64,000 nucleotides of DNA from NCBI GenBank assembly GCA_964612665.1, contig CAZTCI010000004.1:142376-206375 (forward strand), written 5' to 3'. Numbering within the stretch: the stretch's first letter is position 1; each line of letters begins with the position of its first letter. The translations under genes and the position numbers were made by a program. The DNA comes from an uncultured Planctomycetales bacterium. GTDB taxonomy: Bacteria > Omnitrophota > Gorgyraeia > Zapsychrales > JAHFFX01. A model generated the notes under the pieces. That model was not told the DNA's origin. It saw only the letters and a list, made by a program, of their open reading frames with translations, and ran no database searches. Positions 4,651 through 33,943 of the stretch are shown in pieces.

Positions 4651-4745
4651 TTACTGGCCTTTTCTCTCCCAAAGATAAGCTTATTCTATCATTGTCAGCG
4701 AGAAAAGGCCTAGTACTAGACTTTTGCAATGCAAAAGTCAGTAAG
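4651..4745. mobile_element. MITE-like palindromic element, family C copy 1 (95 bp)
   Basis: Near-identical reverse-complement copy at 17317..17411. Internal perfect palindrome gacttttgcaatgcaaaagtc. Termini ttactg...cagtaa. Lies in the intergenic region between trmB and the carboxypeptidase gene, where the ORF track over-extends through it. Confidence 0.75.
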
Positions 4746-4835
4746 GTAGTCAATATTTGGCCTTTTTCTAGAAGGGAAAAAGTCTTAATATTGGATTTCC
4801 TTAATATTGGTTTGGAAAAGGCCAATAAAACTCTG

Positions 4836-5687
4836 TTGAAACAGCGCCAAACGCGACGGGTTGTCATTGTATTTCTTTTTTGTTTAAGTTTTAGTTCAAT
4901 TACAATCACGCCGTCCTTTGCCAAGCTAAAAACTCTTCACAAAAAAACGGGTTCTTACGTTGTCTCCGCTAAATCCGCCATTGTATTAAGCGCTCGAGGA
5001 AAACAATTTTATCAGAAAAATATTTTTCGGCCCGTTCAGCCCGCCAGCACGACCAAAGTCATGACGGCCATTTTGGTTTTAGAAAAATTACCTTTAGACC
5101 AAGTGTTAACAGTCAAAGAAACAGCGACGTGGGTTCAGCCGAGCCGGCTTGATTTAAAGCCCGGCGAACACTATCGTGTTTCTGATCTCTTATATGCACT
5201 TTTAATCAACTCAGCTAACGATGCCAGTGTGGTATTGGCGGAAGGTGTAGCTGGATCGGAGGCCAATTTTGTTCAATTGATGAACCGGCGTGCGCGCCAA
5301 CTTGGTGCAACGCGCACCAGGTTCGTGAATGCGCATGGGCTTCCAGTCAAAGGGAAAACTCAATTTACAACCGCTTATGATATGGCGATGATTTTTAAAA
5401 CAGCTCTGAAAAATAGTTTTTTCAGAAACACTATCGCTCAGCGTTACAAAATTATCTATTCACAAGAAGGTCGTCGGATAACATTAAAGAATCATAACCG
5501 AATGCTTTTTACCCCGTGGGGTAAAGATATTAGGGGAAAAACAGGTTATACGCGCGCGGCGCAATCGTGCTTTGTTGGTTATATGCCTCAAGGGAAGGAT
5601 GATTTGCTTGTGGCCGTTTTCGGCTGCAGCCGCCGATGGCATGATATTCATTATTTAATGATGAAGTATGGAGGGTTAAGACGGTAA
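4836..5687 (+). CDS. D-alanyl-D-alanine carboxypeptidase (peptidase S11, PBP5/6-like); start uncertain (TTG or CTG candidate)
   Basis: Signal peptide RRVVIVFLFCLSFSSITITPSFA, then the SxxK motif (PASTTKVMTA) and SAN motif (LINSANDA) of class A low-MW PBPs. No in-frame ATG lies between the MITE and the signal peptide. Confidence 0.65.
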   Translation: MKQRQTRRVVIVFLFCLSFSSITITPSFAKLKTLHKKTGSYVVSAKSAIVLSARGKQFYQKNIFRPVQPASTTKVMTAILVLEKLPLDQVLTVKETATWVQPSRLDLKPGEHYRVSDLLYALLINSANDASVVLAEGVAGSEANFVQLMNRRARQLGATRTRFVNAHGLPVKGKTQFTTAYDMAMIFKTALKNSFFRNTIAQRYKIIYSQEGRRITLKNHNRMLFTPWGKDIRGKTGYTRAAQSCFVGYMPQGKDDLLVAVFGCSRRWHDIHYLMMKYGGLRR

Positions 5688-5692
5688 GTAAT

Positions 5693-5826
5693 TATTTAAT
5701 TTTAAGACTTTCGCGTTTGGCTATGAACGAACTGAGAACCAGCTCTGCCTTCATCGATATTTAGAAAAGGTAGAACAGGTTCTCCGTGAGAGAAAAGCCA
5801 AACGCGAAAGTCTTAAAATTAAATAA
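5693..5826. repeat. 31-bp perfect inverted repeat separated by a 72-bp spacer
   Basis: ttatttaattttaagactttcgcgtttggct (5693..5723) is the exact reverse complement of 5796..5826. The spacer contains a nested gagaacc...ggttctc pair. Confidence 0.8.
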
Positions 5827-5941
5827 AAGTCGTTTATTGGCTTTTTCCTTTTCAAAGAAAGGTTTTTATTTTTAATAAAAACATAAACTTCATTGAAAAC
5901 TGTCTTATTTTGCGTTAAAATTCACAGCAAAATGGAGAAGT

Positions 5942-6130
5942 ATGGACGATAGCGTTAAAAAAGCTATAACTTACTTATTGTTCTCCGTCGGATGTGGCAT
6001 TTTTCTTTGCGTGCTTTTATTAAAAGTTGATGTCATGGCAAAGCAAGTGGATAGCCAAGTGAAAATGGTTTCCTCCGAGTCAGATTGGCAGGCCTTTCAG
6101 GAATTTCATAAAAAACCCGCAGCCAAGTAA
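5942..6130 (+). CDS. small hypothetical membrane protein
   Basis: 62-aa ORF with one hydrophobic helix (LLFSVGCGIFLCVLLL). No homology recognised. Confidence 0.25.
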   Translation: MDDSVKKAITYLLFSVGCGIFLCVLLLKVDVMAKQVDSQVKMVSSESDWQAFQEFHKKPAAK

Positions 6131-6204
6131 ATTAAAAATCTTTAGCAGTTCAGCAAAATTGCGAGGGCATGCTTTAACTAAAATTTTTAACAAAGGATAA
6201 ATTT

Positions 6205-6999
6205 ATGAGAGAGAAAATTTTATCAATGGTTATTTTTGTGTTTGTTGGCATTGTGATTGGCGTTGCCGTCGCCGTTCAGCGCACAACGAATCCGGTTATG
6301 ATAGATCAATTGACTGAAACCGTCCGGTCTTTAAAACAAGTCGAGGCGCATTTAGCGGTCATTGAAAAACACGCTGACACCGTTGCCGCGTTTTTCAAAA
6401 ACGTGGAAGATCAGAACAAGAGAATGCAAGGGCAGCAGCGTCAACAAGGTCCGACGGAAGACTATAGTAAAGTCTATGAAATTGATCCTGGCTCTTCACC
6501 TATTAGAGGTAAGAAGGATGCTCCAGTCACTATCGTTGCTTTTATGGATTTTCAATGTCCCTTTTGCCAACGCTTTCACCCGCCTATCATTGAAACGCTC
6601 AAAGCCTATCCTGACAAAGTTCGATATATTTTAAAGAATTATCCGTTACCTTTTCATCCCCAGGCCCGGCCCGCCGCTAAGGCCGCGCTGGCAGCTGGCG
6701 AACAAGGCAAGTATTACGAGATGGCTGATCTTTTATTGTCCAGCGGTACAAATTTGACCGACGCTCATTTTGAAGAATTGGCCAAACAGCTGGGGTTGGA
6801 TGTTGAGAAATTCAAGAAAGATTATAAAGAAAAAGACGCCAATTGGGAAAAAATCCTCAATGACGATATGGCGTTAGGATCAAAAGTGGATGTCCAAGGA
6901 ACGCCCACCTTTTTCATAAACGGCCGCAAGACAATGGCCCGCGATTTTAATAGTTTCAAAACAGAAATCGACAAGATTCTGAGCGAACAACCTAAATAA
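6205..6999 (+). CDS. DsbA-family thiol:disulfide oxidoreductase with N-terminal membrane anchor and coiled-coil linker
   Basis: Thioredoxin-fold CPFC active site (FMDFQCPFCQRFHP) and DsbA-like C-terminal region. N-terminal TM helix. Confidence 0.65.
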   Translation: MREKILSMVIFVFVGIVIGVAVAVQRTTNPVMIDQLTETVRSLKQVEAHLAVIEKHADTVAAFFKNVEDQNKRMQGQQRQQGPTEDYSKVYEIDPGSSPIRGKKDAPVTIVAFMDFQCPFCQRFHPPIIETLKAYPDKVRYILKNYPLPFHPQARPAAKAALAAGEQGKYYEMADLLLSSGTNLTDAHFEELAKQLGLDVEKFKKDYKEKDANWEKILNDDMALGSKVDVQGTPTFFINGRKTMARDFNSFKTEIDKILSEQPK

Positions 7000-7007
7000 A
7001 TAATAAA

Positions 7008-7037
7008 GCAGGGACGGCCTGCTCTGGCTGTCCCTGC
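7008..7037 (+). terminator. hairpin downstream of the DsbA-like gene
   Basis: gcagggacgg...ctgtccctgc imperfect stem directly after the stop codon. Weak U-tract. Confidence 0.4.
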
Positions 7038-7164
7038 CAATTTCCGTCAAGAACCCCTCCCTAAGGTAAAAAAAAGTTGCATTAAAATCCTTTATAGTAT
7101 ATTATTTTTAAGTCTAAAGACGGCTCGAAAGGCCGTCTGTACAATTTTAATGGAGGTAGCTTTA

Positions 7165-7422
7165 ATGACAAAGATCGGCGGTACGACAAAAAAATATTAT
7201 AAAGAGACCCGCGGCATAAAGGTTAGCGGCGGTCAAACTGTAACAGCCGGAACCATTCTTACCCGCGAAGGCCACCGTTGGCAGCCTGGCATTAATGTCA
7301 TCGGTCGAACTCATCTCACTGCCGCCTGCGCTGGTGAGGTTTATTTCACCCGCAAAAGAGGAAGTTATCGAAGAGCCATTACCATTGTTAACGTAAGACC
7401 CATAGATCCTAAGGCAAATTAA
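7165..7422 (+). CDS. rpmA: 50S ribosomal protein L27
   Basis: GIKVSGGQTVTAGTILTREGHRWQPGINVIGRTHLTAACAGEVYF aligns with the conserved L27 core. No rplU upstream. Confidence 0.65.
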   Translation: MTKIGGTTKKYYKETRGIKVSGGQTVTAGTILTREGHRWQPGINVIGRTHLTAACAGEVYFTRKRGSYRRAITIVNVRPIDPKAN

Positions 7423-7486
7423 AATCAACCCTAAATCTTAAATTCCAAAGCTTTCAATTCTGGAATTTTAAAAATGTTTATAAAAT

Positions 7487-9319
7487 ATGTGCGGCATAAT
7501 TGGTTACGTTGGTCACAAAGAGGCCGTGGGCATTTTGGTCGACGGTCTAAAGAAGCTCGAATATCGCGGTTATGATTCTAGTGGCGTTGGTGTTGTTTCA
7601 GCCCATGATGGAAAAATCGCGGTCCGCAAGAGCGAAGGCAAGATTCAAAATCTAGTCAATCTCATCAAAGCCAATCATTTACCCCAAAGTTCCGTCGGAA
7701 TATCCCACACCCGCTGGGCAACCCACGGTGTTCCGAATCGGATTAATGCCCATCCTCATTTTGATTGTTCCCACAAAATTCTGGTCGTTCATAACGGCAT
7801 TATTGAAAATTATCAAGAACTTAAAAGCAGTTTAGCCAAAAAAGGCCATAAATTTCTTTCCCAAACTGATACTGAAGTCGTTGCCCACCTCATTGAAGAA
7901 TATAATTACGGCGATATTTTAGAAGCGGTCAAACGCGCAATTAGTGAATTAAAAGGCGCTTTTGCGTTAGGGATCATTAATAGTGATCAGCCTGATACAT
8001 TGATCGCCGCCCGAGTCGGTTCTCCGCTCATTGTTGGCGTAGGACAGGGCGAACATTTTATTGCTTCCGATGTGCCAGCCATATTGGATAAAACTCGTCG
8101 GATTATTTATCTTCAAGATGAACAGCTCGCGGTCATTAAGAAAGATGGACTTAAACTCTTAGATTTTCGGGGCACGCTTTTAACACCGAAGGTTGATTCG
8201 GTTTCTTTCAGCATTGGTTCAGCGCAGAAGGAAGGTTATCCGCATTTTATGCTGAAAGAAATTCATGAACAACCGAAGGTCCTGTCCCAAATGATTTCAG
8301 CGCACATTAAAGGCGGCAAAATTATTTTAGAAGGATTGCATCTTAAGGAAAAAGAATTAAAAAATATTGAACAAATGATGATTGTCGCCTGCGGGACCGC
8401 TTATCACGCTGGGATGGTTGGTAAATATATTATTGAACAGCTGGCAGGATTGCCAGTTGCCGTAGATGTGTCGTCGGAATTTCGTTATCGTTCGCCGATT
8501 ATAAGTAAGAAAACATTAATTGTCGCCATCAGTCAGTCTGGTGAAACCGCTGATACGCTTGCGGCTGTTAAGGAAGCTAAAGCCAAAGGCGCTAAAGTTG
8601 TTTCTATATGTAATGTGTTGGGATCGTCTTTGGTGCGTGAGTCCGACGGTGTTTTGTATACACATGCTGGCCCGGAAATCGGAGTCGCCTCGACTAAAGC
8701 ATACACCGCCCAATTAGGCATGCTTTATCTTTTAGCTTTGAAATTAGGCGAAATGCGTAAAGTATTACCTGCACCTGAGCTTAAAAACATTGCTGAAGAT
8801 CTAAAGAAAATTCCGCATCTTTATGAAGAGATTTTAAAGATTAAAACTAGTGTTGGTAAAATTGCGCGGGCCAATTCCCATTTTGGTTCGTTTCTTTTTT
8901 TGGGCAGGAATGTCAATTATCCTTCAGCCCTTGAAGGTGCACTTAAATTAAAAGAAATTTCTTATATTCCCGCTGAAGGCTACGCCGCCGGTGAAATGAA
9001 ACACGGACCTATTGCGCTCATTGATGAATACCGCGCTGTTGTTTGTATCGCGCCACATGCCGACACTTATGAAAAAATGATTTCCAATATGCAAGAAATC
9101 CGCGCGCGTAAAGGAAAGATCATCGCGATTGCGACCGCCGGCGATACCACCATCAAACAACACGCGCACCACGTTATTTACATTCCCAAAACAAATCAAA
9201 TCCTGACACCTCTTTTGGCGGCGCTTCCTTTACAGATGATTGCTTATTATATTGCCACCAAGCGCGGGTGTGATGTCGATCAACCGCGTAATCTGGCTAA
9301 GTCAGTTACGGTCGAATGA
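7487..9319 (+). CDS. glmS: glutamine--fructose-6-phosphate aminotransferase (isomerizing)
   Basis: N-terminal MCGIIGYVG Ntn-amidotransferase start, two SIS domains, C-terminal ...VDQPRNLAKSVTVE. Confidence 0.95.
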   Translation: MCGIIGYVGHKEAVGILVDGLKKLEYRGYDSSGVGVVSAHDGKIAVRKSEGKIQNLVNLIKANHLPQSSVGISHTRWATHGVPNRINAHPHFDCSHKILVVHNGIIENYQELKSSLAKKGHKFLSQTDTEVVAHLIEEYNYGDILEAVKRAISELKGAFALGIINSDQPDTLIAARVGSPLIVGVGQGEHFIASDVPAILDKTRRIIYLQDEQLAVIKKDGLKLLDFRGTLLTPKVDSVSFSIGSAQKEGYPHFMLKEIHEQPKVLSQMISAHIKGGKIILEGLHLKEKELKNIEQMMIVACGTAYHAGMVGKYIIEQLAGLPVAVDVSSEFRYRSPIISKKTLIVAISQSGETADTLAAVKEAKAKGAKVVSICNVLGSSLVRESDGVLYTHAGPEIGVASTKAYTAQLGMLYLLALKLGEMRKVLPAPELKNIAEDLKKIPHLYEEILKIKTSVGKIARANSHFGSFLFLGRNVNYPSALEGALKLKEISYIPAEGYAAGEMKHGPIALIDEYRAVVCIAPHADTYEKMISNMQEIRARKGKIIAIATAGDTTIKQHAHHVIYIPKTNQILTPLLAALPLQMIAYYIATKRGCDVDQPRNLAKSVTVE

Positions 9320-9335
9320 AGTCTTCATTAGAAAT

Positions 9336-9417
9336 AAAGAAGTAGAGAAGTAAAAGGTAGAGAAATACAGAGAAAAATTCTAATCTCTACATCTTTACTT
9401 CTTGCTTCTCTACTTCT
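9336..9417. repeat. family A palindromic repeat (GTAGAGA / TCTCTAC type), copy A1
   Basis: Purine-rich arm aagaagtagagaagtaaaaggtagag pairs with ctctacatctttacttcttgcttctctacttctt. Directly 3' of glmS. Confidence 0.75.
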
Positions 9418-9423
9418 TAAACC

Positions 9424-10089
9424 ATGCTCTACATCGTCTCAACTCCTATCGGCAACTTAAAAGACATTACCCTTCGGGCGATTGAGGTTTTAAAAGGAGT
9501 TGATCTGATCGCCGCGGAAGATACGCGCCATACCAAAATCTTTACCCAGCATTATCAAATCGCAACACCGTTAACCAGCTATTTCGAACATAATCAGATT
9601 AAGAAAGCGGATTATTTGTTGAGCCTTTTAAAAGAAGGCAAGAAGATCGCTTTGGTCACCGACGCCGGGACTCCTGGAATTAGTGACCCGGGTTACCATT
9701 TGATCCGGTTGGTTCAGGAGAATGAGATCCCGATGACGGTCGTTCCGGGCGCGACAGCGTTGATTGCGGCGTTGTCGCTTTCGGGTTTGCCGGCGCACAG
9801 TTTTATTTTTGAAGGATTTTTGCCGGTCAAGTCAGCCGCCCGTCGGAAAAAGCTGGAATCAATGCGGGATGAGACCCGTACGATTATTTTTTATGAATCT
9901 CCGTACCGGTTGATTAAAACATTAAAAGATATTGCGGAAATTTGGAATGATCCGGTTGTTGTCTGCGCGCGGGAGTTGACAAAAAAATTTGAAGAGGTCA
10001 AGAAGGACAAGGCCAGTCAGTTGATGGAATATTTTGAACGGCACCAGCCTCGAGGGGAGTTTGTGTTGCTTTTGAATAGAAGTTCATAA
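9424..10089 (+). CDS. rsmI: 16S rRNA (cytidine1402-2'-O)-methyltransferase
   Basis: MLYIVSTPIGNLKDITLRAIEVLKGVDLIAAEDTRHT is the conserved RsmI tetrapyrrole-methylase-like N-terminus. Confidence 0.85.
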   Translation: MLYIVSTPIGNLKDITLRAIEVLKGVDLIAAEDTRHTKIFTQHYQIATPLTSYFEHNQIKKADYLLSLLKEGKKIALVTDAGTPGISDPGYHLIRLVQENEIPMTVVPGATALIAALSLSGLPAHSFIFEGFLPVKSAARRKKLESMRDETRTIIFYESPYRLIKTLKDIAEIWNDPVVVCARELTKKFEEVKKDKASQLMEYFERHQPRGEFVLLLNRSS

Positions 10090-10094
10090 AACAC

Positions 10095-10138
10095 GACGGG
10101 CGGCCCTGCATTGACGCAGCGATGCAGGGCCGCCCGTC
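10095..10138. terminator. GC-rich 17-bp perfect stem hairpin between convergent genes
   Basis: gacgggcggccctgcat / atgcagggccgcccgtc with a 10-nt loop. Sits between rsmI (+) and the tail-fibre-like gene (-). T-runs on the minus-strand side. Confidence 0.7.
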
Positions 10139-10153
10139 TAGAATTCAGTTAAT

Positions 10154-11734
10154 TTATTTCAATTTTTTTTCTACCTCATCAATCCTACCTTTTAGCTCTT
10201 CCAGTTTTTTAATCAACTCATCATTCCTTTTATTTAATATCTCGTTTTCTGCTTTGAGTTCTTTGATGGCTTCGATGAGAATGGCAGAGAATTTAGCATA
10301 ATCAACCGCCAAGAATTTTTCATCCCCAGAAATCGTATTGACAAGCTCAGGAAAAATCTTTTGGACTTCTTGTGCAACTACACCGATATCCTTTTGACCA
10401 GCTTTATGATGAAATTTTTCTTCTGCCAGCTTATTCCATTCGAACGAAACACCACGCAGTTGACTTATCTTGGAGAGTGAACCAGTTAAAGGTGTTAAAT
10501 TTTCTTTAAGACGTTGATCAGAAACTGGGACCCCGCAGTTTGTGCATCCACCGCTTAGAATGAGATTTGTAGCCTTAATATCCCCGCCGACCTCCAGTGT
10601 TGCTGTCGGATTTGTGACGGTGACGCCAATGCCAACGTTCCCGGTGTTTTTGATGATGAAGGGACGGTTCGGGCCTAACGTCCCACTTTCAAAACCAATG
10701 GCATCATTCCAAACGCCAAATTCCCAAACGTTGGCGCCTTCCTGAATGATCATCGCCGATTCTCCCGCAGGCGCACGCATGGCGATGGGATGATTGTCTG
10801 CGCCATTGAACACATCTAAAGAGTGACTGGGATTTGTGCTTCCAATGCCGACATTTCCAGCCGCATTGATCGTCAGTGGTGTGGTTACACCATTGACAGT
10901 GTCAACCATTCTGAGTTGAAATAACCCGGCAATGCTGCCTAATTGCCAATAATGGGTTACACCTCTTTCATTAAACTTCATGGTGGTGCCTCCGGCGGGG
11001 GCATCAATTGTTATATTCGGAAGCACGACCCCTGAGTTACTCCAAACATGAAGAGGCGACGTAGGGTTTGTCGTTCCAATTCCGACGTTGGACGACCACA
11101 GGGTCAAAGAACTGGAATCGTTGCCGGATAAGCCGATCCATGCCGAATACTGCGGATTGTTGACATCATACAACCCTCCTGCTCCTTCATATTCTTGAAA
11201 TTGAATCCGAGAAGGATTTTTTAGATCACTCATCACCATCAAAGGCGCAGCCTGAGGGCCATATTGTATCCACATCTGACCGCCATCTCCGCCACCAGTA
11301 TTTAAATTCAACCATTTACCGTCCCCTAAAGCATATCCTCCACCAAGGTCGGGCAGCGGTCCTGCGATGTCCAAAACTGCGTTCGGCACGCTCGTCCCAA
11401 TCCCAACATTGGATATCGCAACATCACTCGTACCCCAGCCGCCGCCCACATTGTTCAATTTGCTGGTATACAAAATGCTCCCACTCTGCTTCCATCCTCC
11501 CATCGTATACCAGGCCCCACTAACGCAATTATTTACAGTACCGTCGGAGCTGGCATACATTGTTCCAGACTGACATGCTGGCGGTGTCGTTAAATCAGCA
11601 GCTTGGGGGTAAAGTCGCATGGAATTATAAATGCCCGACGGGGATGGATAGGACGTTGTCAATGTGATGCTGTCGGCGTAGGAGAGCACCACATTAAATA
11701 ACGATAAAAACAATAGGAAAAAGAATTTTTTCAT
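10154..11734 (-). CDS. secreted tail-fibre-domain protein with C-terminal intramolecular chaperone (peptidase S74-like) domain and terminal coiled coil
   Basis: Signal peptide MKKFFFLLFLSLFNVVLSYA. Four NVGIG(T/S)xNP...L(D/E/H)V repeats. C-terminal SDQRLKENLTPL...ISQLRGVSFEWNK matches the autoproteolytic chaperone domain of phage tail spikes/fibres, followed by a K/E-rich heptad coiled coil. Confidence 0.7.
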   Translation of the reverse strand: MKKFFFLLFLSLFNVVLSYADSITLTTSYPSPSGIYNSMRLYPQAADLTTPPACQSGTMYASSDGTVNNCVSGAWYTMGGWKQSGSILYTSKLNNVGGGWGTSDVAISNVGIGTSVPNAVLDIAGPLPDLGGGYALGDGKWLNLNTGGGDGGQMWIQYGPQAAPLMVMSDLKNPSRIQFQEYEGAGGLYDVNNPQYSAWIGLSGNDSSSLTLWSSNVGIGTTNPTSPLHVWSNSGVVLPNITIDAPAGGTTMKFNERGVTHYWQLGSIAGLFQLRMVDTVNGVTTPLTINAAGNVGIGSTNPSHSLDVFNGADNHPIAMRAPAGESAMIIQEGANVWEFGVWNDAIGFESGTLGPNRPFIIKNTGNVGIGVTVTNPTATLEVGGDIKATNLILSGGCTNCGVPVSDQRLKENLTPLTGSLSKISQLRGVSFEWNKLAEEKFHHKAGQKDIGVVAQEVQKIFPELVNTISGDEKFLAVDYAKFSAILIEAIKELKAENEILNKRNDELIKKLEELKGRIDEVEKKLK

Positions 11735-11802
11735 AGTTTTGGTTTCCTGTAAAAAGTTTGCGGGATTTTGTAAGGATTATATATCTGTAGACAAAAACAA
11801 AA

Positions 11803-11838
11803 AACCCTATTCTTGATTATTTTTTCAAGACTAGGGTT
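11803..11838 (-). terminator. intrinsic-terminator-like hairpin in the minus-strand leader of the tail-fibre-like gene
   Basis: aaccctattcttga / tcaagactagggtt 14-bp stem. On the minus strand it is followed by UUUUUUGUUUUUG, about 55 nt upstream of the start codon. Confidence 0.5.
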
Positions 11839-12116: not shown

Positions 12117-12145
12117 TTGACACTCTTAAAAAGGGATGATATATT
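12117..12145 (+). promoter_or_regulatory. sigma70-like promoter for the pyrR operon (TTGACA-N17-TATATT)
   Basis: Consensus -35 at 12117..12122 and -10 at 12140..12145 with 17-nt spacing, upstream of the PyrR attenuator. Confidence 0.45.
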
Positions 12146-12194
12146 TTTGGCCGAGAAAGATTGTTGGTTAAGTAAAGATTTTCTTTTAAACCCG

Positions 12195-13824
<1,630 letters not shown>

Positions 13825-13904: not shown

Positions 13905-15203
13905 ATGTCGATTCTGATTAAAAACGCAATCATTGTGAGCGCTGATAAAATCGCTTCCAAGCCGCAAGATATCTTTCTTGAAAAAGGAAAAATTTCCAAG
14001 CTTGCGCCGAAATTGGATTTGTCCGCCGAGGAAACGATTGACGCGCAGGATAAGTTAGTTTTGCCTGGACTCATCGATCTTCATGTTCATCTGCGTGAAC
14101 CTGGCCGCGAAGATAAAGAAACGATTGAAACTGGTTCGCGCTCAGCCGCTAAAGGCGGATTTACTTCCATTTTTTGCATGCCGAATACGAATCCCGTTAT
14201 CGATAATGGGATGATCGTTGAAGCGATTATCAAAGAAGCTAAGCGCGTTGGGCTCGTGAATGTCTATCCGATTGGTGCGATCACGAAAGGCCAAAAGAAT
14301 GAAGAGCTGACGGATATGGCGGAACTTAAAAAATCCGGATGTCTGGTGCTTTCCGACGACGGAAAAGCGGTCGCCAACGGCCAGCTCATGCGCCGTGCTT
14401 TGGAATACGCCAAGATGCTTGGTCTTCTGCTTATTCAACACTGCGAAGACCCATTATTAAGCAATCACGGCTGCATGAATGAAGGCGTTACCTCGACGCT
14501 ATTAGGATTAAAAGGAATTCCAGGTGTTGCCGAAACAATTATTGTCGCCCGTGATATTGAACTCGCCCATTATCTTAAAACCAAAATTCATTTTGCGCAT
14601 ATGAGTTTAAAACGTTCGATTGAGTTAATTCGATTTGCTAAATCTCAAGGCATCTTCGTGACCGCGGAAGTTTGCCCGCATCACTTCACATTGACCGATG
14701 AAATTGTGAAATCATTCGATACCAACACCAAAGTCAATCCGCCGCTGCGCACGCAAGAAGACGTTGACGCTTTAAAAGAAGGCCTTAAAGACGGTACGAT
14801 TGACTGCATCACAACCGACCATGCACCGCACACCGCCGAGGAAAAAGAATCTGAATATGATCACGCGCCGTTCGGCATGATTGGATTAGAAACAGCCGTG
14901 GGTCTCGCCATAACCGAACTCGTCGAAAAAGAATATTTGACCTGGCCTGAACTCGTCAATAAAATGTCGACGATGCCAGCCAAGATCACCGGCTTAACAA
15001 ATAAAGGCGAAATCAAAGAAGGCAAAGACGCCGACATTACAATCATCGACTCCGATTGTGAATGGATTTTTCGTAAAGAAGAAATCACCTCCAAATCCAA
15101 AAACTCGCCTTTTATCGCACGTAAACTTAAAGGCCGGGTTGCCGCAACGATTTGTAATGGAAAGATAGTTTATGAACAGGAGAGAGAAGAGAGTAGAAAG
15201 TAG
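13905..15203 (+). CDS. pyrC: dihydroorotase
   Basis: LPGLIDLHVHLREPG and FTSIFCMPNTNP metal-binding motifs of amidohydrolase-type DHOase. The C-terminal residues are encoded by repeat A2. Confidence 0.85.
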   Translation: MSILIKNAIIVSADKIASKPQDIFLEKGKISKLAPKLDLSAEETIDAQDKLVLPGLIDLHVHLREPGREDKETIETGSRSAAKGGFTSIFCMPNTNPVIDNGMIVEAIIKEAKRVGLVNVYPIGAITKGQKNEELTDMAELKKSGCLVLSDDGKAVANGQLMRRALEYAKMLGLLLIQHCEDPLLSNHGCMNEGVTSTLLGLKGIPGVAETIIVARDIELAHYLKTKIHFAHMSLKRSIELIRFAKSQGIFVTAEVCPHHFTLTDEIVKSFDTNTKVNPPLRTQEDVDALKEGLKDGTIDCITTDHAPHTAEEKESEYDHAPFGMIGLETAVGLAITELVEKEYLTWPELVNKMSTMPAKITGLTNKGEIKEGKDADITIIDSDCEWIFRKEEITSKSKNSPFIARKLKGRVAATICNGKIVYEQEREESRK

Positions 15204-15256
15204 AGAGTCAGCAAATTTCGTATCACTCTCTACTCTCACCTTGCTCCTTTCTACTA
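15183..15256. repeat. family A palindromic repeat, copy A2
   Basis: gagtagaaagtagagagt...actctctactctc with extended arms. Spans the pyrC stop codon, directly before tRNA-Arg. Confidence 0.75.
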
Positions 15257-15276: not shown

Positions 15277-15348
15277 GCCCCTGTAGCTCAACGGATAGAG
15301 TACTAGCCTCCGGAGCTAGTGGTACAGGTTCGATTCCTGTCAGGGGCA
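15277..15348 (+). tRNA. tRNA-Arg (anticodon CCG)
   Basis: Manual cloverleaf: acceptor gcccctg/caggggc, D stem gctc/gagt, anticodon stem ctagc/gctag with loop cuCCGga, T arm acagg-ttcgatt-cctgt, discriminator A. No encoded CCA. Confidence 0.85.
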
Positions 15349-15471
15349 CTTCGACTCGACTCTTCTTTGTTTTGTACTTGGCCTCGCTCAGTGTAAACTT
15401 TAGAGGGCCGAGTACGAAGTGCCCTGAGCGAACGACTAGGATTGTTTATCATAAGGGAGTGAGTCGAAGGG

Positions 15472-15717
15472 ATGTGGACGGTTTACATCATTCAAAGAAA
15501 AGATAGCTCGTTATATATAGGTATGACAATCGATATAGAGCGGCGCCTCCAAGAGCATAGGCGGAATATGAATTTTTGTGAGATCGAATCAATATATAAA
15601 GAACAATTTCCTGATAAGTTTAAAGCAGCAGCCAGAGAGAAACAACTTAAAGGTTGGACAAGAAAAAAGAAATTAGCTCTGATGGCTGGTGATTTAGAAT
15701 TGTTAAAGAAGCTGTAA
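15472..15717 (+). CDS. GIY-YIG nuclease family protein (UPF0213 / YhbQ-like)
   Basis: VYIIQRKDSSLYIGMTIDIERRLQEH is the GIY-YIG signature. Small 81-aa protein. Confidence 0.7.
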   Translation: MWTVYIIQRKDSSLYIGMTIDIERRLQEHRRNMNFCEIESIYKEQFPDKFKAAAREKQLKGWTRKKKLALMAGDLELLKKL

Positions 15718-16382: not shown

Positions 16383-16465
16383 AAGAGAAGTAGAGAGGCA
16401 AGAAGCAAAGAAGCAGAGAAAAAGCGTTTATCTCTACTTCGCTGCCTCTTGCTTTTCTATTTCTT
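16383..16465. repeat. family A palindromic repeat, copy A3
   Basis: gaagtagagaggcaagaagcaaagaagcagagaaaa...tctctacttcgctgcctcttgcttttctatttctt. Confidence 0.7.
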
Positions 16466-17316: not shown

Positions 17317-17411
17317 CCTTACTGACTTTTGCATTGCAAAAGTCTAGTACTAGGCCTTTTCTCCCTGAGAATGATAGGACAACTTATCTTTGGGAGAGAA
17401 AAGGCCAGTAA
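17317..17411. mobile_element. MITE-like palindromic element, family C copy 2 (inverted relative to copy 1)
   Basis: Reverse complement of 4651..4745 with a handful of substitutions. Intergenic between mutM and the ICMT-family gene. Confidence 0.75.
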
Positions 17412-18993: not shown

Positions 18994-19077
18994 TTCGTGG
19001 TTCGTCGTTCGAGGAAACCGTTTTTTTATATGCAAATAAAAGAACGAATGCCACGAACAACGAAAGCACGAACGACC
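18994..19077. repeat. family B palindromic repeat (CGTTCG-type), copy B1
   Basis: Shares ...ttcgtcgttcgaggaaa.cg...aaataaaagaacgaat.cc.cgaacaacgaaagca with 36112..36192. Lies between pyrK and pyrD. The ORF-track pyrD start is extended through it. Confidence 0.75.
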
Positions 19078-22531: not shown

Positions 22532-22540
22532 AAACTAAGA

Positions 22541-22622
22541 TAAGGAGAAAGGAGCGAGTAGAAAGTAGAGAGTCTGTGCAAGTTTGCATCTCTCTACTCT
22601 CTCCTTGTTACTCTCTACTCTT
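22541..22622. repeat. family A palindromic repeat, copy A4
   Basis: aaggagaaaggagcgagtagaaagtagagagt...actctctactctctccttgttactctctactctt. Fills the gap between hppA stop and pyrF start. Confidence 0.75.
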
Positions 22623-26459: not shown

Positions 26460-27049
26460 ACAAACTCAAACAATATTTCTTCACCGGGCTGATTATATTC
26501 TTGCCCATAGCGCTTATCGTCCAGCTTTTACATATCACCGTAACTACGGCGGATAGATTTTTTGGTATTTTTCTAAAGCCGTATTTCACTAAAGAGCTCG
26601 GTTTTTATTCTCAGACTTTTAGTTTAATATTTTGTATTCTTTTAATTTTTAGTTTAGGCGTTTTCGTGACGAACTTTGCGGGAAGAAAGATCCATGAAAT
26701 TTTCGAAGCGTTTTTAGTGCGCATTCCTTTTTTTAAACAAGTCTATCCAGCTTCGAAAGAAATTTCTTCATTTCTGTTTTCGAAAGAAAAGTTTAATTTC
26801 CGTCAGAGTGTCTTAATCCCTTATCCACGTCCGGGCATTTATTCGCTCGGATTTTTAACGAATGAAGGTCCGAAAACCATGTCTCAAAAAACAAACACAG
26901 AGTTATGCCATGTGTTTGTTCCGCACACCCCGCAGCTTTTGAGTGGATTTTTTACCGTTGTTCCCAGAAAAGATTTAATTTTTCCTGAGCTGACTATAGA
27001 ACAAGCCGTAAAATTTATTATGACCGGCGGTATTATTAAGATTGAATAA
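26456..27049 (+). CDS. DUF502-family membrane protein
   Basis: Two N-terminal TM helices and conserved C-terminal ...EQAVKFIMTGGI, typical of DUF502. Confidence 0.5.
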   Translation: MNKLKQYFFTGLIIFLPIALIVQLLHITVTTADRFFGIFLKPYFTKELGFYSQTFSLIFCILLIFSLGVFVTNFAGRKIHEIFEAFLVRIPFFKQVYPASKEISSFLFSKEKFNFRQSVLIPYPRPGIYSLGFLTNEGPKTMSQKTNTELCHVFVPHTPQLLSGFFTVVPRKDLIFPELTIEQAVKFIMTGGIIKIE

Positions 27050-27099
27050 ATGCGTTTTATGAAACGGGTAGTTAAAGAAAAATATTGAAATAATTAAAA

Positions 27100-27246
27100 T
27101 TCTTAGTAAACTATTGGCCGATCTCGAATAGAATTTTTACCTGTCTTTATTTCCGGTACTCGCCCTCGAAGCAAGAAGAAGAGAAATTGAAATTAAGAAA
27201 TATATAAAGGCGTAGAGCATTAAGGAACTAGTTGCATTAAAAGTTG
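27100..27246 (+). pseudogene. remnant of a second GIY-YIG gene (3' end only)
   Basis: Translates to ...ALEARRREIEIKKY, matching the C-terminus of the intact GIY-YIG gene at 27351..27611. About 100 bp of nucleotide similarity to 27460..27596. No 5' half. Confidence 0.6.
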
Positions 27247-27313
27247 GGCCCGTGGTGTAGTCTGGTTAACATGTCACCCCGCCTAAGGCGGGGTGAAGAT
27301 CGCCGCGTTCAAA
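27247..27313 (+). pseudogene. degenerate tRNA-Asp-like fragment (5' acceptor and D arm conserved; anticodon arm replaced by a 7-bp hairpin; no 3' acceptor strand)
   Basis: gggcccgtggtgtagtctggttaacatgtca is identical to the 5' 31 nt of tRNA-Asp at 27597. It is followed by ccccgcc-taa-ggcgggg and a T-arm-like cgccgcgttcaaatcgag, then TTTTT. Confidence 0.6.
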
Positions 27314-27350
27314 TCGAGTTTTTAGTAATATTGTTATCGACAACTTTGTT

Positions 27351-27611
27351 ATGTATTTTGTATATATTATTAAAAGTGTTAAAAATGGAAGGTATTATAC
27401 AGGTTTCACGAGTAATCTTGAGCTAAGAATAAAACAGCATAACGATGGTCAAACTAAATCTCTTAAGAACCGTGGACCTTTTGAAATAGTTTTTACACAA
27501 ACGTATAATACCGCATTAGAAGCGCGAAGAAGAGAAATTGAGATTAAGAAATATAAGGGGGGAAGAGCATTTAGGGAATTATTAAATTCAAAAGTTGGGC
27601 CCGTGGTGTAG
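27351..27611 (+). CDS. GIY-YIG nuclease family protein (YhbQ-like)
   Basis: YFVYIIKSVKNGRYYTGFTSNLELRIKQH is the GIY-YIG signature. The 3' end overlaps the first 15 nt of tRNA-Asp. Confidence 0.7.
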   Translation: MYFVYIIKSVKNGRYYTGFTSNLELRIKQHNDGQTKSLKNRGPFEIVFTQTYNTALEARRREIEIKKYKGGRAFRELLNSKVGPVV

Positions 27612-27671
27612 TCTGGTTAACATGTCAGATTGTCGATCTGAAGATCGCGCGTTCAAATCGCGTCGGGCCCG
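27597..27671 (+). tRNA. tRNA-Asp (anticodon GTC)
   Basis: Acceptor gggcccg/cgggccc, anticodon stem tcaga/tctga with loop uuGUCga, T arm gcgcg-ttcaaat-cgcgt, discriminator G. Confidence 0.85.
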
Positions 27672-27733
27672 TTCTTCTACGTTCCAATGTTTACACGTTG
27701 GAGCTTCGAAGAAACAGGTTCCTATGAAGTACG

Positions 27734-27762
27734 AAAGCCATCTTATAAATTAAGATGGCTTT
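27734..27762. terminator. hairpin terminator between convergent tRNA-Asp and a minus-strand gene
   Basis: aaagccatctta-taaat-taagatggcttt followed by TTTATTT. Abuts the stop codon of the minus-strand GT-C gene. Confidence 0.6.
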
Positions 27763-27763
27763 T

Positions 27764-28972: not shown

Positions 28973-28984
28973 TTGAATTTGCGT

Positions 28985-29045
28985 GAATGAGCGAAGGAGC
29001 GGGCGCCCCGCTTCGGCGTAAAGCGCTGCGGCGGGGCGCCCGGCG
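28985..29045 (-). other. GC-rich intercistronic hairpin inside the minus-strand operon
   Basis: gggcgccccgc...gcggggcgccc 11-bp perfect stem in otherwise AT-rich DNA, between two co-directional minus-strand genes. Confidence 0.5.
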
Positions 29046-29058
29046 TCTTTATTTCAGC

Positions 29059-29739
29059 TTACAGCAGCTTCTGCGTCAGAATATAAACCATCGTCGGATG
29101 TTTTAAGCAATACATCATGTGCGTACGTTTCAAAGCGACATAAGGCTCGAACCCAGATTTCATAAAAAATGCCTTGGCCTTTTCCGACATGGTGGCGAGA
29201 TGCACACCGCTGACTTTATGTTCTCTTAAATAGTTCAGATAATATTCAATAAGACGGCCGCCGATTTTTTGATTGCGGTAAGCATTGTCGATATTGATAT
29301 GCAAGACGGCAGGATATTTCTCGGTCAAATCGGGAAAGTGCAGATTGCCCTGCAAAAATGCCTTGGCTGATTCCAAAAGAAAGCGCAAAGATTTCTTATT
29401 GACGAGAAAACCGCGCTGAATGAGTTTCAAAATTAATTTAGGCAGAATTCTTGAATTAAATACCCTCATCATCCCGCGCTCATCCAGCGTCCCGGTCAAA
29501 TAACCAATTGTTTTGCCCCGATGTTCCGCCACAAAACAGGATTCGGGTTCATAATCCGTAAAATAAATGGTTAGAAAATCCGCAAGGACTTCATCATCTT
29601 CGAAGAATTGATAACGCGGAAATCCGGCGAAAGATGTTTCGCAGCTGATCAGACGGACACTTTCCCGGTCAGAAGGTTTAAAAGGGCGGATCACAATATT
29701 AGAAAAAATAAAACTCATTTTAGTTTTAAAGCCCTCCAT
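29059..29739 (-). CDS. GNAT-family N-acetyltransferase
   Basis: Acetyl-CoA binding motif region (RNQKIGGRLIEYYLNYLREHKVSGVHLATMSEKAKAFFMKSGFEP). Confidence 0.55.
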   Translation of the reverse strand: MEGFKTKMSFIFSNIVIRPFKPSDRESVRLISCETSFAGFPRYQFFEDDEVLADFLTIYFTDYEPESCFVAEHRGKTIGYLTGTLDERGMMRVFNSRILPKLILKLIQRGFLVNKKSLRFLLESAKAFLQGNLHFPDLTEKYPAVLHINIDNAYRNQKIGGRLIEYYLNYLREHKVSGVHLATMSEKAKAFFMKSGFEPYVALKRTHMMYCLKHPTMVYILTQKLL

Positions 29740-31103
29740 GCTGTGGCCGACAAAGGCAGATTGCCAGAACGCATTCTAACCGACGTCAGTATATAATCCG
29801 GGTCTTTAAGTTCTTTTAAAGGAAACCGAATAATTAAATCTTGTTTGTTAAATTTAACTTCGACACCCGCAACTTCAATGTCCTTTTGCTTATCATAAAA
29901 CTTAAGCCGTGTCCCCCAATTGCTCATTGAAATGCGGATCTTGGGCATATCGGCGAAAGGGATTTTCTTGTTATAACTAAAAAGGAAAAGATTTGTGCCC
30001 AATAATTTGTCTTTCCAGCGCTGAGATGTAATTTTAATTTCAAGAAAACCTTTAGCCTTAGTGTAAACGACAGACTCAATGAATTTATTCTGGACGTCTT
30101 TTTCTTCTGGAAATTGACCTTCAACACCGGTCAATTTTTCTAAATGACTTTGTCCGATTGGCTGGATTTCTTTTTCTTTTACCTCGACGACTGGATACCG
30201 GCCGAAAAGTTCATTTTTCCGCGCGAATGTAAAAAGATAAGGAGGATTATACTCGATTTGGCTTTTATAAAGATTAATCATGTCGTATTTCTTTTGAATG
30301 ACGGCTTTTTCTAAAGGCAGCGAAAACCAGCTAAGATCATGATTTAATTTGGCTGGCGGAATAATTTCAGAATCTGGATGATAACCCCGGGGCTTCGGCC
30401 AGCCCGATAAATGGATAAGATAAGGATAAATTGCGGGTGCCGGTATTTGATCTTCTATATCCCATAAAGCTACCTGCAAAAAAAGAAAACACGCCCGATG
30501 GTCACCGTTACTGTCTACCGGATTGGTCACAAAAATTTTTGTCGGTTTGAAATCTAAAAGAATTTTATCCAAATCTCTTAAAATGTTGTCGCCGAGATAA
30601 GCGGCGTTAGGTGAAAAGGCGTCTTTGTAAGGGACCTGCTGGACACGTGTGAAAAGACTTTTAAAAGGTTTAACCGCACCCCAGTATGAAATAAATATAT
30701 TGAATGTCCCAAAATCCGGATAACCTAAAAAAATCAACTGATCATCTTTAAGGCCTGCCAATCTCATTGCTTTGACAGCTTCATCGCGGCGGATACGGCC
30801 GTAATTGATAAAGGCATTTTTGCGGATAACAAGATGTTTGGAATAAATGATAAAAGCCAATTCATTATTGTCACCGTTCGTTAAATACACTACTTTAATG
30901 GGAATTCCTTGTTTAACCGCTTGCTGGATAACGCCCGCTGTTCCGATGGCTTCATCGTCGGGATGAGGAGCAAAAATCAGAATCCGGTCATCAGCGGTTA
31001 AGGTCGGAAGAGGTTCCGTCGTTATATTTTCTGCAAATCCGCTCACAGCACAGCAGAGCATGATCGCAATTAGAATAAGAATCTTTTTAATTTTCAATGG
31101 CAT
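29715..31103 (-). CDS. secreted PIG-L/LmbE-family N-acetylglucosaminyl deacetylase with extra C-terminal domain
   Basis: Signal peptide MPLKIKKILILIAIMLCCAVSGFA followed by ILIFAPHPDDEAIGTAG (LmbE/PIG-L zinc-binding motif). About 220 additional C-terminal residues of unknown fold. Confidence 0.6.
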   Translation of the reverse strand: MPLKIKKILILIAIMLCCAVSGFAENITTEPLPTLTADDRILIFAPHPDDEAIGTAGVIQQAVKQGIPIKVVYLTNGDNNELAFIIYSKHLVIRKNAFINYGRIRRDEAVKAMRLAGLKDDQLIFLGYPDFGTFNIFISYWGAVKPFKSLFTRVQQVPYKDAFSPNAAYLGDNILRDLDKILLDFKPTKIFVTNPVDSNGDHRACFLFLQVALWDIEDQIPAPAIYPYLIHLSGWPKPRGYHPDSEIIPPAKLNHDLSWFSLPLEKAVIQKKYDMINLYKSQIEYNPPYLFTFARKNELFGRYPVVEVKEKEIQPIGQSHLEKLTGVEGQFPEEKDVQNKFIESVVYTKAKGFLEIKITSQRWKDKLLGTNLFLFSYNKKIPFADMPKIRISMSNWGTRLKFYDKQKDIEVAGVEVKFNKQDLIIRFPLKELKDPDYILTSVRMRSGNLPLSATAWRALKLK

Positions 31104-32729
31104 TTACAATGCTTTCTTTTTTAATATTAATGTCCCATGATTCCACGCCCAGCCTGGTGGATTCATCCAATCACCAATACGCACCGCGGGTTCATAATTA
31201 TTATTTATGTACTGGGCGATCAATGGACAATACGTCTGGCCTAAAATACCTAACCCTTGTTCTGCCGAACTAAAACGGCTTGATAAAACCACATAAGCAA
31301 CATTCTGATTTTTTAATTCATCAATAATCCGTTTTTCTTGTTCGGTTGGAATTTTAATGTGTTCAAAGAAAATCAACTGCCTGGTTGGGCTTTTTTTACC
31401 TGTTAAATAATAGTAAAGACAGTCATAAGGTAAAGCAAAAAATGTTTCATTATTTTGTAGATGGCTGGTTAGAAATTCGGTCGTTACATCTACGGTTTTA
31501 ATCCAGTTGATATCATTGCCGACATACACTTGGCCTTTAGGATAGGTCAAAAAATGTCCAGGCGTTTTATAATGCTCAATAATTTTAAACTGCGGCCAAA
31601 ACTGTGAAAGTCCCACCAATAAAAAACAACCATACAAAAAGTTTTTCCAAACACGAGAAATTTGAAGTGTGGCGACGGCAATAAAGCTAAACATAAGCAT
31701 CAATTGAAATGGTTTGGCCCAGAACGAACGATACAAAACGCCGCTGCGCAAGAATTCATGCATACTTGTCAGGTAAAAAATAATTAAAATGCCGATGAAC
31801 AAAATGATGTCCATACGTTTGTTTGACTCGATCTTTCCTTTAATTAAAAGAAAGACGCTATAAAAAATTGATAAGTTAAGCACAACGGCAAAGACTTTAT
31901 TGGCTAAAACCAATTTTATGTTGTTCCAGGTAATTTCGAATAGAACCTGTAGAGCCTTCACTGGTGATGTTTCATAAGGCTGATCTCCGCCCCAGTACGG
32001 AAAACATTGACGGATTTCATGAATCGTCAATCCGCGCACCAGCCAAGAATAAATTCCAAGGACAGCCGCCGGAAAAAGCAAAATAGCGGCGGCGTAGAAA
32101 TATTTTTTGGCGGCGCCAAAATTATTTTTCTTGAATTTATCAATTAGGAAAACCGAAATCAGCAAAGCGGCTAAAGAACTAAACGCAAAGTTGATTTTAA
32201 TGAAAGCTAAAAGAAAAAGACTTCCTAACGCCCAGAAAAGATAACGCGGTTGAGCATCTTTTAAATACAGATTGAGCGCATAGAAAGCCAGATTAACCAT
32301 GACAATGCCGCCGACATGGTTGTAGGTAAAGAAAAAATCCGCATTAAATATCCAAAACCACAAAGCGGTTAGAAAACTTAAGAATGGAGAAAAAAACAAG
32401 GCCATCGCCCCATAGATCAAAGTGCCAGCTATAAGATTGAGAAGGAGTTTCCCAATTAAAATGCTATGGATGCTAATACCCAAAAGCAGATTGAAGAGCC
32501 CATAATAAAGGATCATGAGCGGCCCGTAGACCCACCAATAATCTTTGTAAGGCTGGCCGCCAGATAGTATCTGTTCAAAAGCGTACAAATCCCGCCCGTG
32601 ATCACCTTGGGCCAGATAATCCTGGAAGTTGTGATAAGGCGCCAGCAAAACGCAGCCCGCCAGAATTGTTAAAATTAAAAATAGGTGTTGTTGGGGTTTA
32701 TTTTTGGTTAGTTCTGTAAGGAAATTCAT
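31104..32729 (-). CDS. large polytopic membrane protein, putative GT-C-type glycosyltransferase
   Basis: 541 aa with more than 10 predicted TM helices. First gene of the minus-strand operon. No confident family assignment. Confidence 0.4.
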   Translation of the reverse strand: MNFLTELTKNKPQQHLFLILTILAGCVLLAPYHNFQDYLAQGDHGRDLYAFEQILSGGQPYKDYWWVYGPLMILYYGLFNLLLGISIHSILIGKLLLNLIAGTLIYGAMALFFSPFLSFLTALWFWIFNADFFFTYNHVGGIVMVNLAFYALNLYLKDAQPRYLFWALGSLFLLAFIKINFAFSSLAALLISVFLIDKFKKNNFGAAKKYFYAAAILLFPAAVLGIYSWLVRGLTIHEIRQCFPYWGGDQPYETSPVKALQVLFEITWNNIKLVLANKVFAVVLNLSIFYSVFLLIKGKIESNKRMDIILFIGILIIFYLTSMHEFLRSGVLYRSFWAKPFQLMLMFSFIAVATLQISRVWKNFLYGCFLLVGLSQFWPQFKIIEHYKTPGHFLTYPKGQVYVGNDINWIKTVDVTTEFLTSHLQNNETFFALPYDCLYYYLTGKKSPTRQLIFFEHIKIPTEQEKRIIDELKNQNVAYVVLSSRFSSAEQGLGILGQTYCPLIAQYINNNYEPAVRIGDWMNPPGWAWNHGTLILKKKAL

Positions 32730-32949
32730 TTTGACGAGGCGCTGAAATCTTTGAAATAATAAATGTTTGTGAGTCTACTGGAGTCATTCTAGTGATTCGC
32801 TGTATGTGTGCGGCCATTATAGGGAAGAGAGGCTTCCGGCTCAATCATTTAGTTACAAATTTGTCTTTAGATTTGATTATAGTGGGGCTTTGATGTACAA
32901 TGCTGGCGATTTTGAGTAAAAGCCTTCCTTTAAATTTTCCAAAGGACCA

Positions 32950-33840
32950 TTGTTGATGCAAACTCAAACCCAGTTGCCTGAAGTTGAGGTTCCCAAAGAC
33001 ACAGATTACTTGGGCGTTTACTTAACCAACCGTTGTTTCCTTTCCTGCTCCTACTGCATCACCAATTACAACGAACAATTTATAAATCTAAAAAAATTCC
33101 GCGAGCTTGAAGCGTCCGAATGGGTTGAGGCTTTAAACCGTTTGAAACTTCCCCCCGGCGTTCCTTTAACGTTTCAAGGAGGGGAGCCTTTTATTCATAA
33201 AGGGATTTGGGAAATTCTGGAGAATGTTCATCACAAAATTGATATTCTGACAGCCTTACCGCCGCAAGTTACCGTCGAGAGATTTACACAATTAAAGACG
33301 CTCGTATGGAACAAACGCCCCGCCCCCTATCCCACCATTAGGGTCAGTTTCCATAAAGGGCAAAACGATTACAAAAAATTAATTGAGCGCATCAAAAAAC
33401 TGCAAAAGATTGTCAGTATCGGTTTATACCATATTGAACACCCTGCCTATCCCGAATTAATTGAAGAAATCCGCCAATACGCTAGAGCCGAAGGCGTTGA
33501 ATTCCGTACCAAAACTTTTTTGGGCGAGTATAACGGTAAACTTTATAGTGAATACAGATATCCCGATGCCTGCAAGGGAAAAATAGTTCGTCCGTTGGTC
33601 CAATGCAAGAATACGGTTTTTCCGATTGGCCCGGATGGGACCGTTTACCGTTGTCATTCGGATTTGTATTCTATCCGACGAGAATTGAGCATTGGAAATC
33701 TTCTCGATCCTGATTTAAAACTCGAACACAAGTACCGCGACTGCCGCTTTTATGGGACATGCATTCCCTGTGATGTGAAAGTGAAGACCAACCATTTGCA
33801 GCAACAAGGTTATACATCGGTGGACATCCTCTTTCCTTAA
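32950..33840 (+). CDS. radical SAM protein
   Basis: CxxxCxxC motif (NRCFLSCSYC) about 30 aa from the N-terminus. Additional C-terminal cysteines (CHSD, CRFYGTCIPC). Confidence 0.6.
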   Translation: MLMQTQTQLPEVEVPKDTDYLGVYLTNRCFLSCSYCITNYNEQFINLKKFRELEASEWVEALNRLKLPPGVPLTFQGGEPFIHKGIWEILENVHHKIDILTALPPQVTVERFTQLKTLVWNKRPAPYPTIRVSFHKGQNDYKKLIERIKKLQKIVSIGLYHIEHPAYPELIEEIRQYARAEGVEFRTKTFLGEYNGKLYSEYRYPDACKGKIVRPLVQCKNTVFPIGPDGTVYRCHSDLYSIRRELSIGNLLDPDLKLEHKYRDCRFYGTCIPCDVKVKTNHLQQQGYTSVDILFP

Positions 33841-33911
33841 TTAATGATTCGAATATTAATTTTTAGGTTATGGTAACGAAGCCGGTTTCGTTAGGGGTTT
33901 GGGGTTAGGTG

Positions 33912-33943
33912 TTACTGGCCTTTTGCAATGCAAAAGTCAGTAA
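33912..33943. mobile_element. miniature derivative of the family C MITE-like element (32 bp)
   Basis: ttactggccttttgcaatgcaaaagtcagtaa joins the two termini of the 95-bp element. Sits inside a family D inverted repeat (33893..33989). Confidence 0.6.

Follow-up and report, generated by a model that had tools for sequence, protein, structure and literature searches.

RUP, one of the miniature transposable elements with inverted repeats (MITEs) of bacteria, is presumed to owe its mobility to IS630-Spn1. Published accounts describe bacterial MITEs as shorter than 200 bp, with terminal inverted repeats and TA termini, and they occur both between and within genes, with open frames that are fused in frame (PMC2229807; PMC10969869). 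Here we describe a short repeat, which we refer to as family C, in a 64-kb stretch of DNA (hereafter the window) from an uncultured bacterium of the phylum Omnitrophota (assembly GCA_964612665.1, contig CAZTCI010000004.1, positions 142,376 to 206,375). As its features match the published description of MITEs, we read it as one of them: family C probably belongs with the non-autonomous DNA transposons, as a 94-bp bacterial MITE. The initial annotation of the window had proposed a MITE-like mobile element, and near-identical copies elsewhere, a clean insertion in the gene for one protein (P0124, below), TA ends, a length of <100 bp and element-free relatives all speak for that proposal.

Copies and structure of the element

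Two full-length copies are present in the window. Copy 1, which reads TTACTG...CAGTAA, occupies 4651..4744 on the + strand (94 nt), and copy 2 occupies 17319..17411 on the - strand (93 nt, the loop of its first hairpin, H1, being one base shorter); they lie in opposite orientation, with 12.6 kb between them, and the surrounding DNA is unrelated. The initial annotation had described 4651..4745 and 17317..17411 as reverse complements with a few internal substitutions, and our alignment agrees, giving 95% identity with four substitutions and one 1-nt indel; judged by these sequences, copies 1 and 2 are of recent common descent. A 32-bp miniature (33912..33943, + strand) consists, as had been noted, of the two termini fused, matching element positions 1-13 joined to 71-94, and is unchanged in an independent Logan contig (L024). 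A 26-mer from the end of the element that carries the second hairpin, H2, matched three times in the window vs. 0.00 expected from shuffles. Copy 1 lies between the + strand genes trmB-like and dacA, copy 2 between the + strand genes fpg and PEMT-like, where it begins 10 nt past the fpg stop codon, and the miniature between the + strand genes radical-SAM and GT9. The earlier statement that all three copies are intergenic thus holds; the family as a whole is not purely intergenic, its members outside the window lying inside genes.

The body of the element consists of two back-to-back hairpin units, each of the form TACT(G/A)G...C(T/C)AGTA, with a central TA common to both. In copy 1, H1 has its stem at 4653-4666/4700-4715 around a 33-nt loop, with a 14-bp stem ACTGGCCTTTTCTC / GAGAAAAGGCCTAGT, and H2 (4715-4742) is a near-perfect palindrome, ACT(A)GACTTTTGCA-A-TGCAAAAGTCAGT. 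A palindrome and a second inverted pair had been reported in both copies, and each can be placed by coordinates in both: the palindrome GACTTTTGCA(A/T)TGCAAAAGTC is at 4719-4739 in copy 1 and 17324-17344 in copy 2, and the inverted pair GGCCTTTTCTC / GAGAAAAGGCC is at 4656-4666/4700-4710 and 17353-17363/17396-17406, respectively. At the centre is a perfect palindrome, CTAGTACTAG (4710-4719 in copy 1, 17344-17353 in copy 2). All four arms of H1 and H2 have the shape TACT(G/A)G(C/A)CTTTT, and with its arms so alike the element looks like a dimer of two units which meet at this central palindrome. The terminal inverted repeats that mark a MITE are present in imperfect form, the left being TTACTGGCCTTTT and the right, read inward, TTACTGACTTTT; aligned as TTACTGGCCTTTT vs. 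TTACTG-ACTTTT they match at 11 of 12 positions, with one extra base. At 93-94 nt, well within the <200 bp of MITEs, the element has no gene of its own, its only open frames being 31-codon read-throughs.

Strong RNA folds are predicted for either strand (-35 to -43 kcal/mol, z -5.7 to -7.5), with -35.4 kcal/mol (z = -6.7) for copy 1 and -42.8 kcal/mol (z = -7.5) for copy 2 on the + strand. The five positions at which copies 1 and 2 differ are all inside the 33-nt H1 loop (p about 0.004), which leaves the stems and termini as the conserved parts. Promoter and terminator scans of the element gave no promoter consensus and no U-tract terminator, and Rfam gave no family at the gathering threshold, a permissive search below it yielding generic hairpin matches only.

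Copies inside protein-coding genes

As gene callers read through the element, we joined its six-frame translations as a pseudo-protein and searched this against a collection of 5.8 billion proteins. Three matching proteins only were returned, P0123, which is the window's own dacA open-reading frame (ORF), P0124 and P0125, and the reverse open frame of the element (TLLTFALQKSSTRPFL...) had no match in the collection. P0124, an acyltransferase of 403 aa (Acyl_transf_3), is encoded on an NCBI contig of 243,210 bp and contains TGLFSPKDKVVLSFPGRKGLVLDFCNAKVSK. P0125, a membrane-plus-TPR protein of 643 aa, is encoded on an NCBI contig of 401,062 bp and contains TGLFSSKDKVVLSFPGRKDLVLDFCNAKVSK. The P0124 insert is encoded exactly by a 94-nt sequence that equals copy 2 with one inserted G and one T-to-C change, which places the P0124 and P0125 copies about as close to copy 2 as copy 1 is. 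Both proteins probably come from the same genome as the window, given the near-identity of the inserts and the equally isolated homologues. Counting these two with the two in the window, there are four near-identical full copies, one deletion derivative and one relic (see below), and both filled and empty sites, as expected of a dispersed mobile element.

The insertion in P0124 is clean. Most of its 150 best library representatives match in two stretches, skipping roughly residues 79-109, and against aligned homologues P0124 has exactly 30 extra residues, missing from all seven, between the conserved SGFLITG...ED(F/L)x and xxIR(L/V)(K/R)RFY. With the insert removed the protein reads EDF-K-SKIRLRRFY, the normal family spacing, and the empty site reconstructed from the codons is TTT-AAG, i.e. 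T-TTAA-G, with a net gain of 90 nt. The element frame used here has no stop codon, and as 90 bases make 30 codons, such insertions can persist inside genes. P0125 likely carries an in-frame insert too, since about 24-30 residues are extra in comparison with eight homologues, in a linker of variable length.

Target sites and element-free relatives

The ends TTA...TAA were found at all four sites that can be read at DNA or codon level (copies 1 and 2, the miniature and P0124), the copies reading T-TA-CTG...CAG-TA-A. At the P0124 site two fits are possible, an 88-nt element with a duplicated TA, or a 90-nt element in TT^AA without duplication; we infer a TA target-site duplication within TTAA. 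As other candidate target duplications, GGT flanking copy 2 on both sides and CAATAT near copy 1 were rejected as inconsistent across copies.

Relatives show the site of copy 2 without the element. Two of them (L003, L004) have the gene order of the window, pyrR-pyrB-pyrC-SLOG-fpg-PEMT-pyrK-pyrD-PPase, and the fpg-PEMT gap, which is 195 nt in the window, is 34 nt in L003 and L004 and 71 nt in L005; no element is present in this gap in any of these three syntenic relatives. The Logan contigs around each copy (L001, L020-L025) are identical to the window, with no empty-site allele among them. Two contigs from two runs, L022 and L023, both end at 4678, 28 nt into copy 1. The exact match of copies 1 and 2 at this position is just 29 nt long, below k = 31, and the repeats of the window leave the contig stops unexplained; the shared end gives a weak hint of another copy or allele sharing TATTACTGGCC...GATAA, several other contig ends being unexplained by these repeats too.

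A nested relic and the miniature

Copy 1 is itself inserted in an older family member. The pattern GGCCTTTT-N25-55-AAAAGGCC occurs three times in the window vs. 0 expected, and the third occurrence (4759-4823) lies beside copy 1. When copy 1 is excised, 4627-4650 and 4745-4828 together align with the reversed element over its full length, with 67 of 94 element positions identical, TTATTGACTTTT and GGAAAAGGCCAATAA at the two ends included; the score of 49 compares with 21 +/- 4 for shuffles and is the highest of 1,572 windows. The H2 loop of an older, decayed copy, which we call copy 0, is thus the site in which copy 1 is nested. The left part of copy 0 (4627..4650, - strand) carries the H2-type end TTATTGACTTTT, and its right part (4745..4828, - strand) contains AGTCAATA and GGCCTTTTTCT ... 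GGAAAAGGCCAATAA. The copy list of the initial annotation stands for the two full copies and the miniature, this degenerate fourth copy around copy 1 having been missed.

The right arm of copy 0 overlaps what is probably the ribosome-binding region of dacA (start TTG 4836). An ORF from GTG 4575 (4575-5687) passes through copy 1, and its Pfam peptidase match begins only at residue 129; the signal peptide MKQRQTRRVVIVFLF begins at TTG 4836, which is the likely true start of a 283-aa product. The GTG-4575 extension is an artefact, in agreement with the earlier view that copy 1 over-extends the carboxypeptidase ORF, and the public protein record P0123 (370 aa) is this dacA carboxypeptidase over-extended by 87 codons through copy 1. 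Just 3' of dacA there is also a 60-nt inverted repeat (5692-5826, 83% complementary, 15-nt spacer), inside which contig L025 starts.

The miniature sits at the tip of an imperfect hairpin (33883..33990, no strand assigned, GGGGTTTGGGGTTAGG / CCCTAACCTAAAACC) in the style of the 'family D' palindrome in which it had been placed. Its two source segments, positions 1-13 and 71-94, overlap at the junction by a 5-nt CTTTT, and an H1-type left arm (GGCC) is joined to an H2-type right arm (GTC), giving a bulged, mismatched hairpin. A mismatched hairpin fits slippage between the directly repeated left arms ACTGGCCTTTT and ACTAGACTTTT, and it also speaks for deletion in that one would expect a clean palindrome of a primordial unit. 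Of the two origins that had been offered, a deletion derivative or the minimal transposed unit, we favour the first, an internal deletion that would have arisen by slippage between the two left arms via the 5-nt microhomology, and the minimal unit is disfavoured.

Distribution and the search for a transposase

The core 21-mer CTTTTGCAWTGCAAAAGTCAG had no match in the GTDB species representatives. A protein encoded 6.5 kb past the window end (L020) has no relative in that genome-contig collection, which places the source genome outside it, and the zero therefore shows only that no other species' representative has the family and is silent on copy number in the source genome. In JGI metagenomes the 21-mer recovered one unrelated hairpin only (L002), and viral contigs gave only chance 16-20-mers of the element, with no extension. 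About 13.5 kb of same-organism sequence outside the window, in Logan contigs, contained no further copy. The Fpg protein of the window is recorded on a 340,394-bp NCBI contig and in Logan assemblies of SRR12313477-79; its best homologues are only 60% identical, the named relatives being Omnitrophota. Pfam and NCBIfam scans of nearly all ORFs >= 70 aa found no transposase in the window, as the initial annotation had stated; pyrB (12859-13824) was identified by synteny with L003 only. A limited literature search found no published MITE family for Omnitrophota.

Weighing the origin of the element

As a MITE, family C would be moved in trans by a transposase encoded elsewhere, inserting at TA in TTAA-like sites with duplication of the TA, and the net gain of 90 bp would then be 88 + 2. 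The leading candidate for the enzyme, by analogy only, would be a TA-duplicating DDE transposase of the IS630/Tc1-mariner type. Insertions into coding regions in the stop-free frame may survive as 30-residue in-frame additions, and intergenic copies would add strong hairpins to transcripts. Several points weigh against this reading. The TA duplication is inseparable from the terminal repeat, and an undoubled 90-nt insertion in TT^AA fits equally. The left terminus in P0125 cannot be TTACTG, as Ser precedes Thr, and the P0124 and P0125 copies are known from protein sequence only. The 64 kb hold two full copies, one miniature and one relic, with none in the ~13.5 kb more, and copy number in the genome could be small. 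Finally, no transposase or insertion sequence with matching ends was found within the 64-kb window.

The alternative that survives best, although we think it unlikely, is a repetitive extragenic palindromic (REP) or REPIN-like element spread as single-stranded hairpins, with no target duplication, by a REP-associated tyrosine transposase (RAYT; Y1, IS200-like). The dimer of two hairpin units with similar arms resembles a REP doublet, no unambiguous target duplication is seen at the three window sites, copy 1 occupies the H2 loop of an older copy and the miniature the tip of a different hairpin, and the genome is full of intergenic hairpins. However, the conserved GTAG/CTAC tetranucleotide is missing and the ends are symmetric (TTAC.../...GTAA), REPs are extragenic whereas family C is in frame inside two ORFs, the exact 90-nt net gain at TTAA fits a TA-duplicating cut-and-paste better, and the window has no RAYT or Y1 transposase gene.

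A wider reading, which we hold to be a little more doubtful again, is that small TTAA/TA-targeting palindromic elements repeatedly colonise Omnitrophota genomes and that family C is the young, visible layer of this process. Such elements may insert by preference into or next to existing hairpins and degenerate into the long low-complexity hairpins found in almost every intergenic gap here and in relatives, in-frame copies may be kept as 30-residue loop modules in membrane proteins, and the driver would possibly be a kind of transposase that has yet to be connected with bacterial MITEs. If this were true, the element would be a main source of the lineage's unusual intergenic architecture and of some protein novelty.

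IS608 has TTAC as its target. A deletion derivative of the IS200/IS605 family (PATE), inserted 3' of TTAC as IS608 is and with subterminal hairpins, would account for the TTAC start of the four copies with known termini (1, 2, the miniature and P0124), the hairpins near both ends and the lack of a clear target duplication, and yet it seems improbable to us: IS200/IS605 ends are asymmetric whereas those of family C are symmetric inverted repeats, the window lacks genes for TnpA and TnpB, and strand-specific insertion predicts one orientation, whereas copies 1 and 2 are inverted relative to each other although the steady rise of GC skew across the window suggests a single replichore. The symmetric TA ends, the intragenic copies and these opposite orientations weaken the RAYT and IS200/IS605 explanations alike. 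Least probable by our estimate, and very unlikely, is a non-mobile structured RNA or regulatory hairpin (a terminator, RNA-stability element or protein-binding site) duplicated by recombination, for which the very stable predicted folds, conserved stems with a varying loop, the position of all window copies just downstream of + strand genes and the long hairpins in most other intergenic gaps can be cited, but which fails in its purely RNA-structural form because transcription would read the two copies in opposite directions, so that their RNAs differ, and because copies lie within coding sequences on other contigs, while the missing U-tract, promoter consensus and Rfam family and the element-free syntenic relatives also count against it. 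A MITE moved in trans is the reading we retain.

Other features of the window

Almost every gap between co-directional genes holds a long hairpin with a 25-45-bp stem and low-complexity motifs (GTAGAGA/TCTCTAC, CCAGTT/AACTGG, GGGTTTAGG, GTTCGTCG); two of these hairpins are perfect GC-rich palindromes. The hairpins were found at 9333-9430, 10095-10138, 15171-15255, 16385-16465, 22536-22619, 28990-29050, 34968-35064, 36114-36195, 37306-37380, 38429-38486, 41044-41105 and 57038-57117, and the same style is seen in the relatives L003 and L005. They may represent a terminator or REP-like system common to the lineage, or the remains of decayed mobile elements. A 69-nt palindromic element occurs in two copies with 88% identity (19000-19068 and 36122-36190), and a 32-nt palindrome, AACC(N)CCCAACCCCGG(R)GGTTG(R)GG(N)GGTT, in three intergenic copies (46503-46534, 51064-51127).

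Two small ORFs of the GIY-YIG type, 81 and 86 aa long and 26% identical (15277-15717 and 27161-27672), each adjoin a tRNA gene, Arg-CCG and Asp-GTC. At the second, 27161-27276 and 27512-27627 form a 351-nt tandem duplication comprising the GIY-YIG 3' end and the 5' half of tRNA-Asp, which leaves a pseudo-tRNA at about 27246-27320. The arrangement points to a mobile GIY-YIG cassette with tRNA genes as its targets.

The Peptidase_S74 domain is an endosialidase chaperone domain typical of phage tail fibres. A 526-aa protein with this domain (10154-11734, - strand) adjoins the pyr operon, and a counterpart is present at the same position in a syntenic relative (L003, 3049-4797). Upstream of pyrR-pyrB-pyrC is a PyrR-binding leader (12178-12287; Rfam RF00515, with 54.5 bits slightly over the gathering score). 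In the regions 46528-57037 and 59648-61885, a ~6.15-kb tandem paralogous module includes two membrane proteins of the YfhO-like kind, 957 and 907 aa long with 44% identity, and a third YfhO-like gene lies downstream, in a glycan-synthesis gene cluster.

Comparison with known systems

Family C adds a member to a well-known class of elements, in a phylum that has been little studied, and the understanding of how MITEs work stays unchanged. Its consequences are practical ones. It misleads gene callers, over-extending the dacA ORF in a public record (P0123) and adding a 30-residue insert to at least one conserved membrane enzyme, and it breaks short-read assemblies, Logan contigs ending inside the element. 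The six-frame translation of a repeat followed by a protein search reveals copies when nucleotide databases lack the genome.

REP, BIME (bacterial interspersed mosaic element) and REPIN sequences resemble family C in having palindromic units clustered or nested between genes and a doublet architecture; family C differs in the lack of the GTAG motif, in its symmetric TA ends and in its in-frame intragenic copies, and no RAYT is in the window. In mechanism, family C would by analogy be closest to the TA-duplicating MITEs, RUP and the Correia elements. RUP and other MITEs mobilised by IS630/Tc1-mariner transposases are likewise ~100 bp, with terminal inverted repeats, a TA site, a non-coding hairpin body and movement in trans (PMC2229807). 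There is no sequence similarity, however, the TA duplication of family C is an inferred one, no matching IS630-type element was found in the window, and the host belongs to Omnitrophota. The Correia or NEMIS elements of Neisseria are also short, with TA ends, size variants produced by internal deletion and ORF variants fused in genes (PMC2229807), but their 26-bp terminal inverted repeats, IHF sites and promoter elements are not evident in family C.

In behaviour, by contrast, the closest counterpart by analogy would be the Rickettsia palindromic elements (RPEs), in which a palindromic repeat occurs between genes and in frame inside protein genes, adding a peptide (PMC10969869, PMC2229807). 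The likeness is one of behaviour, as RPEs are presumably unrelated in sequence, about 100-150 bp long and found in Rickettsia only, and two intragenic cases are known for family C. Family C thus offers a compact case of RPE-like in-frame insertion outside the Rickettsiales.

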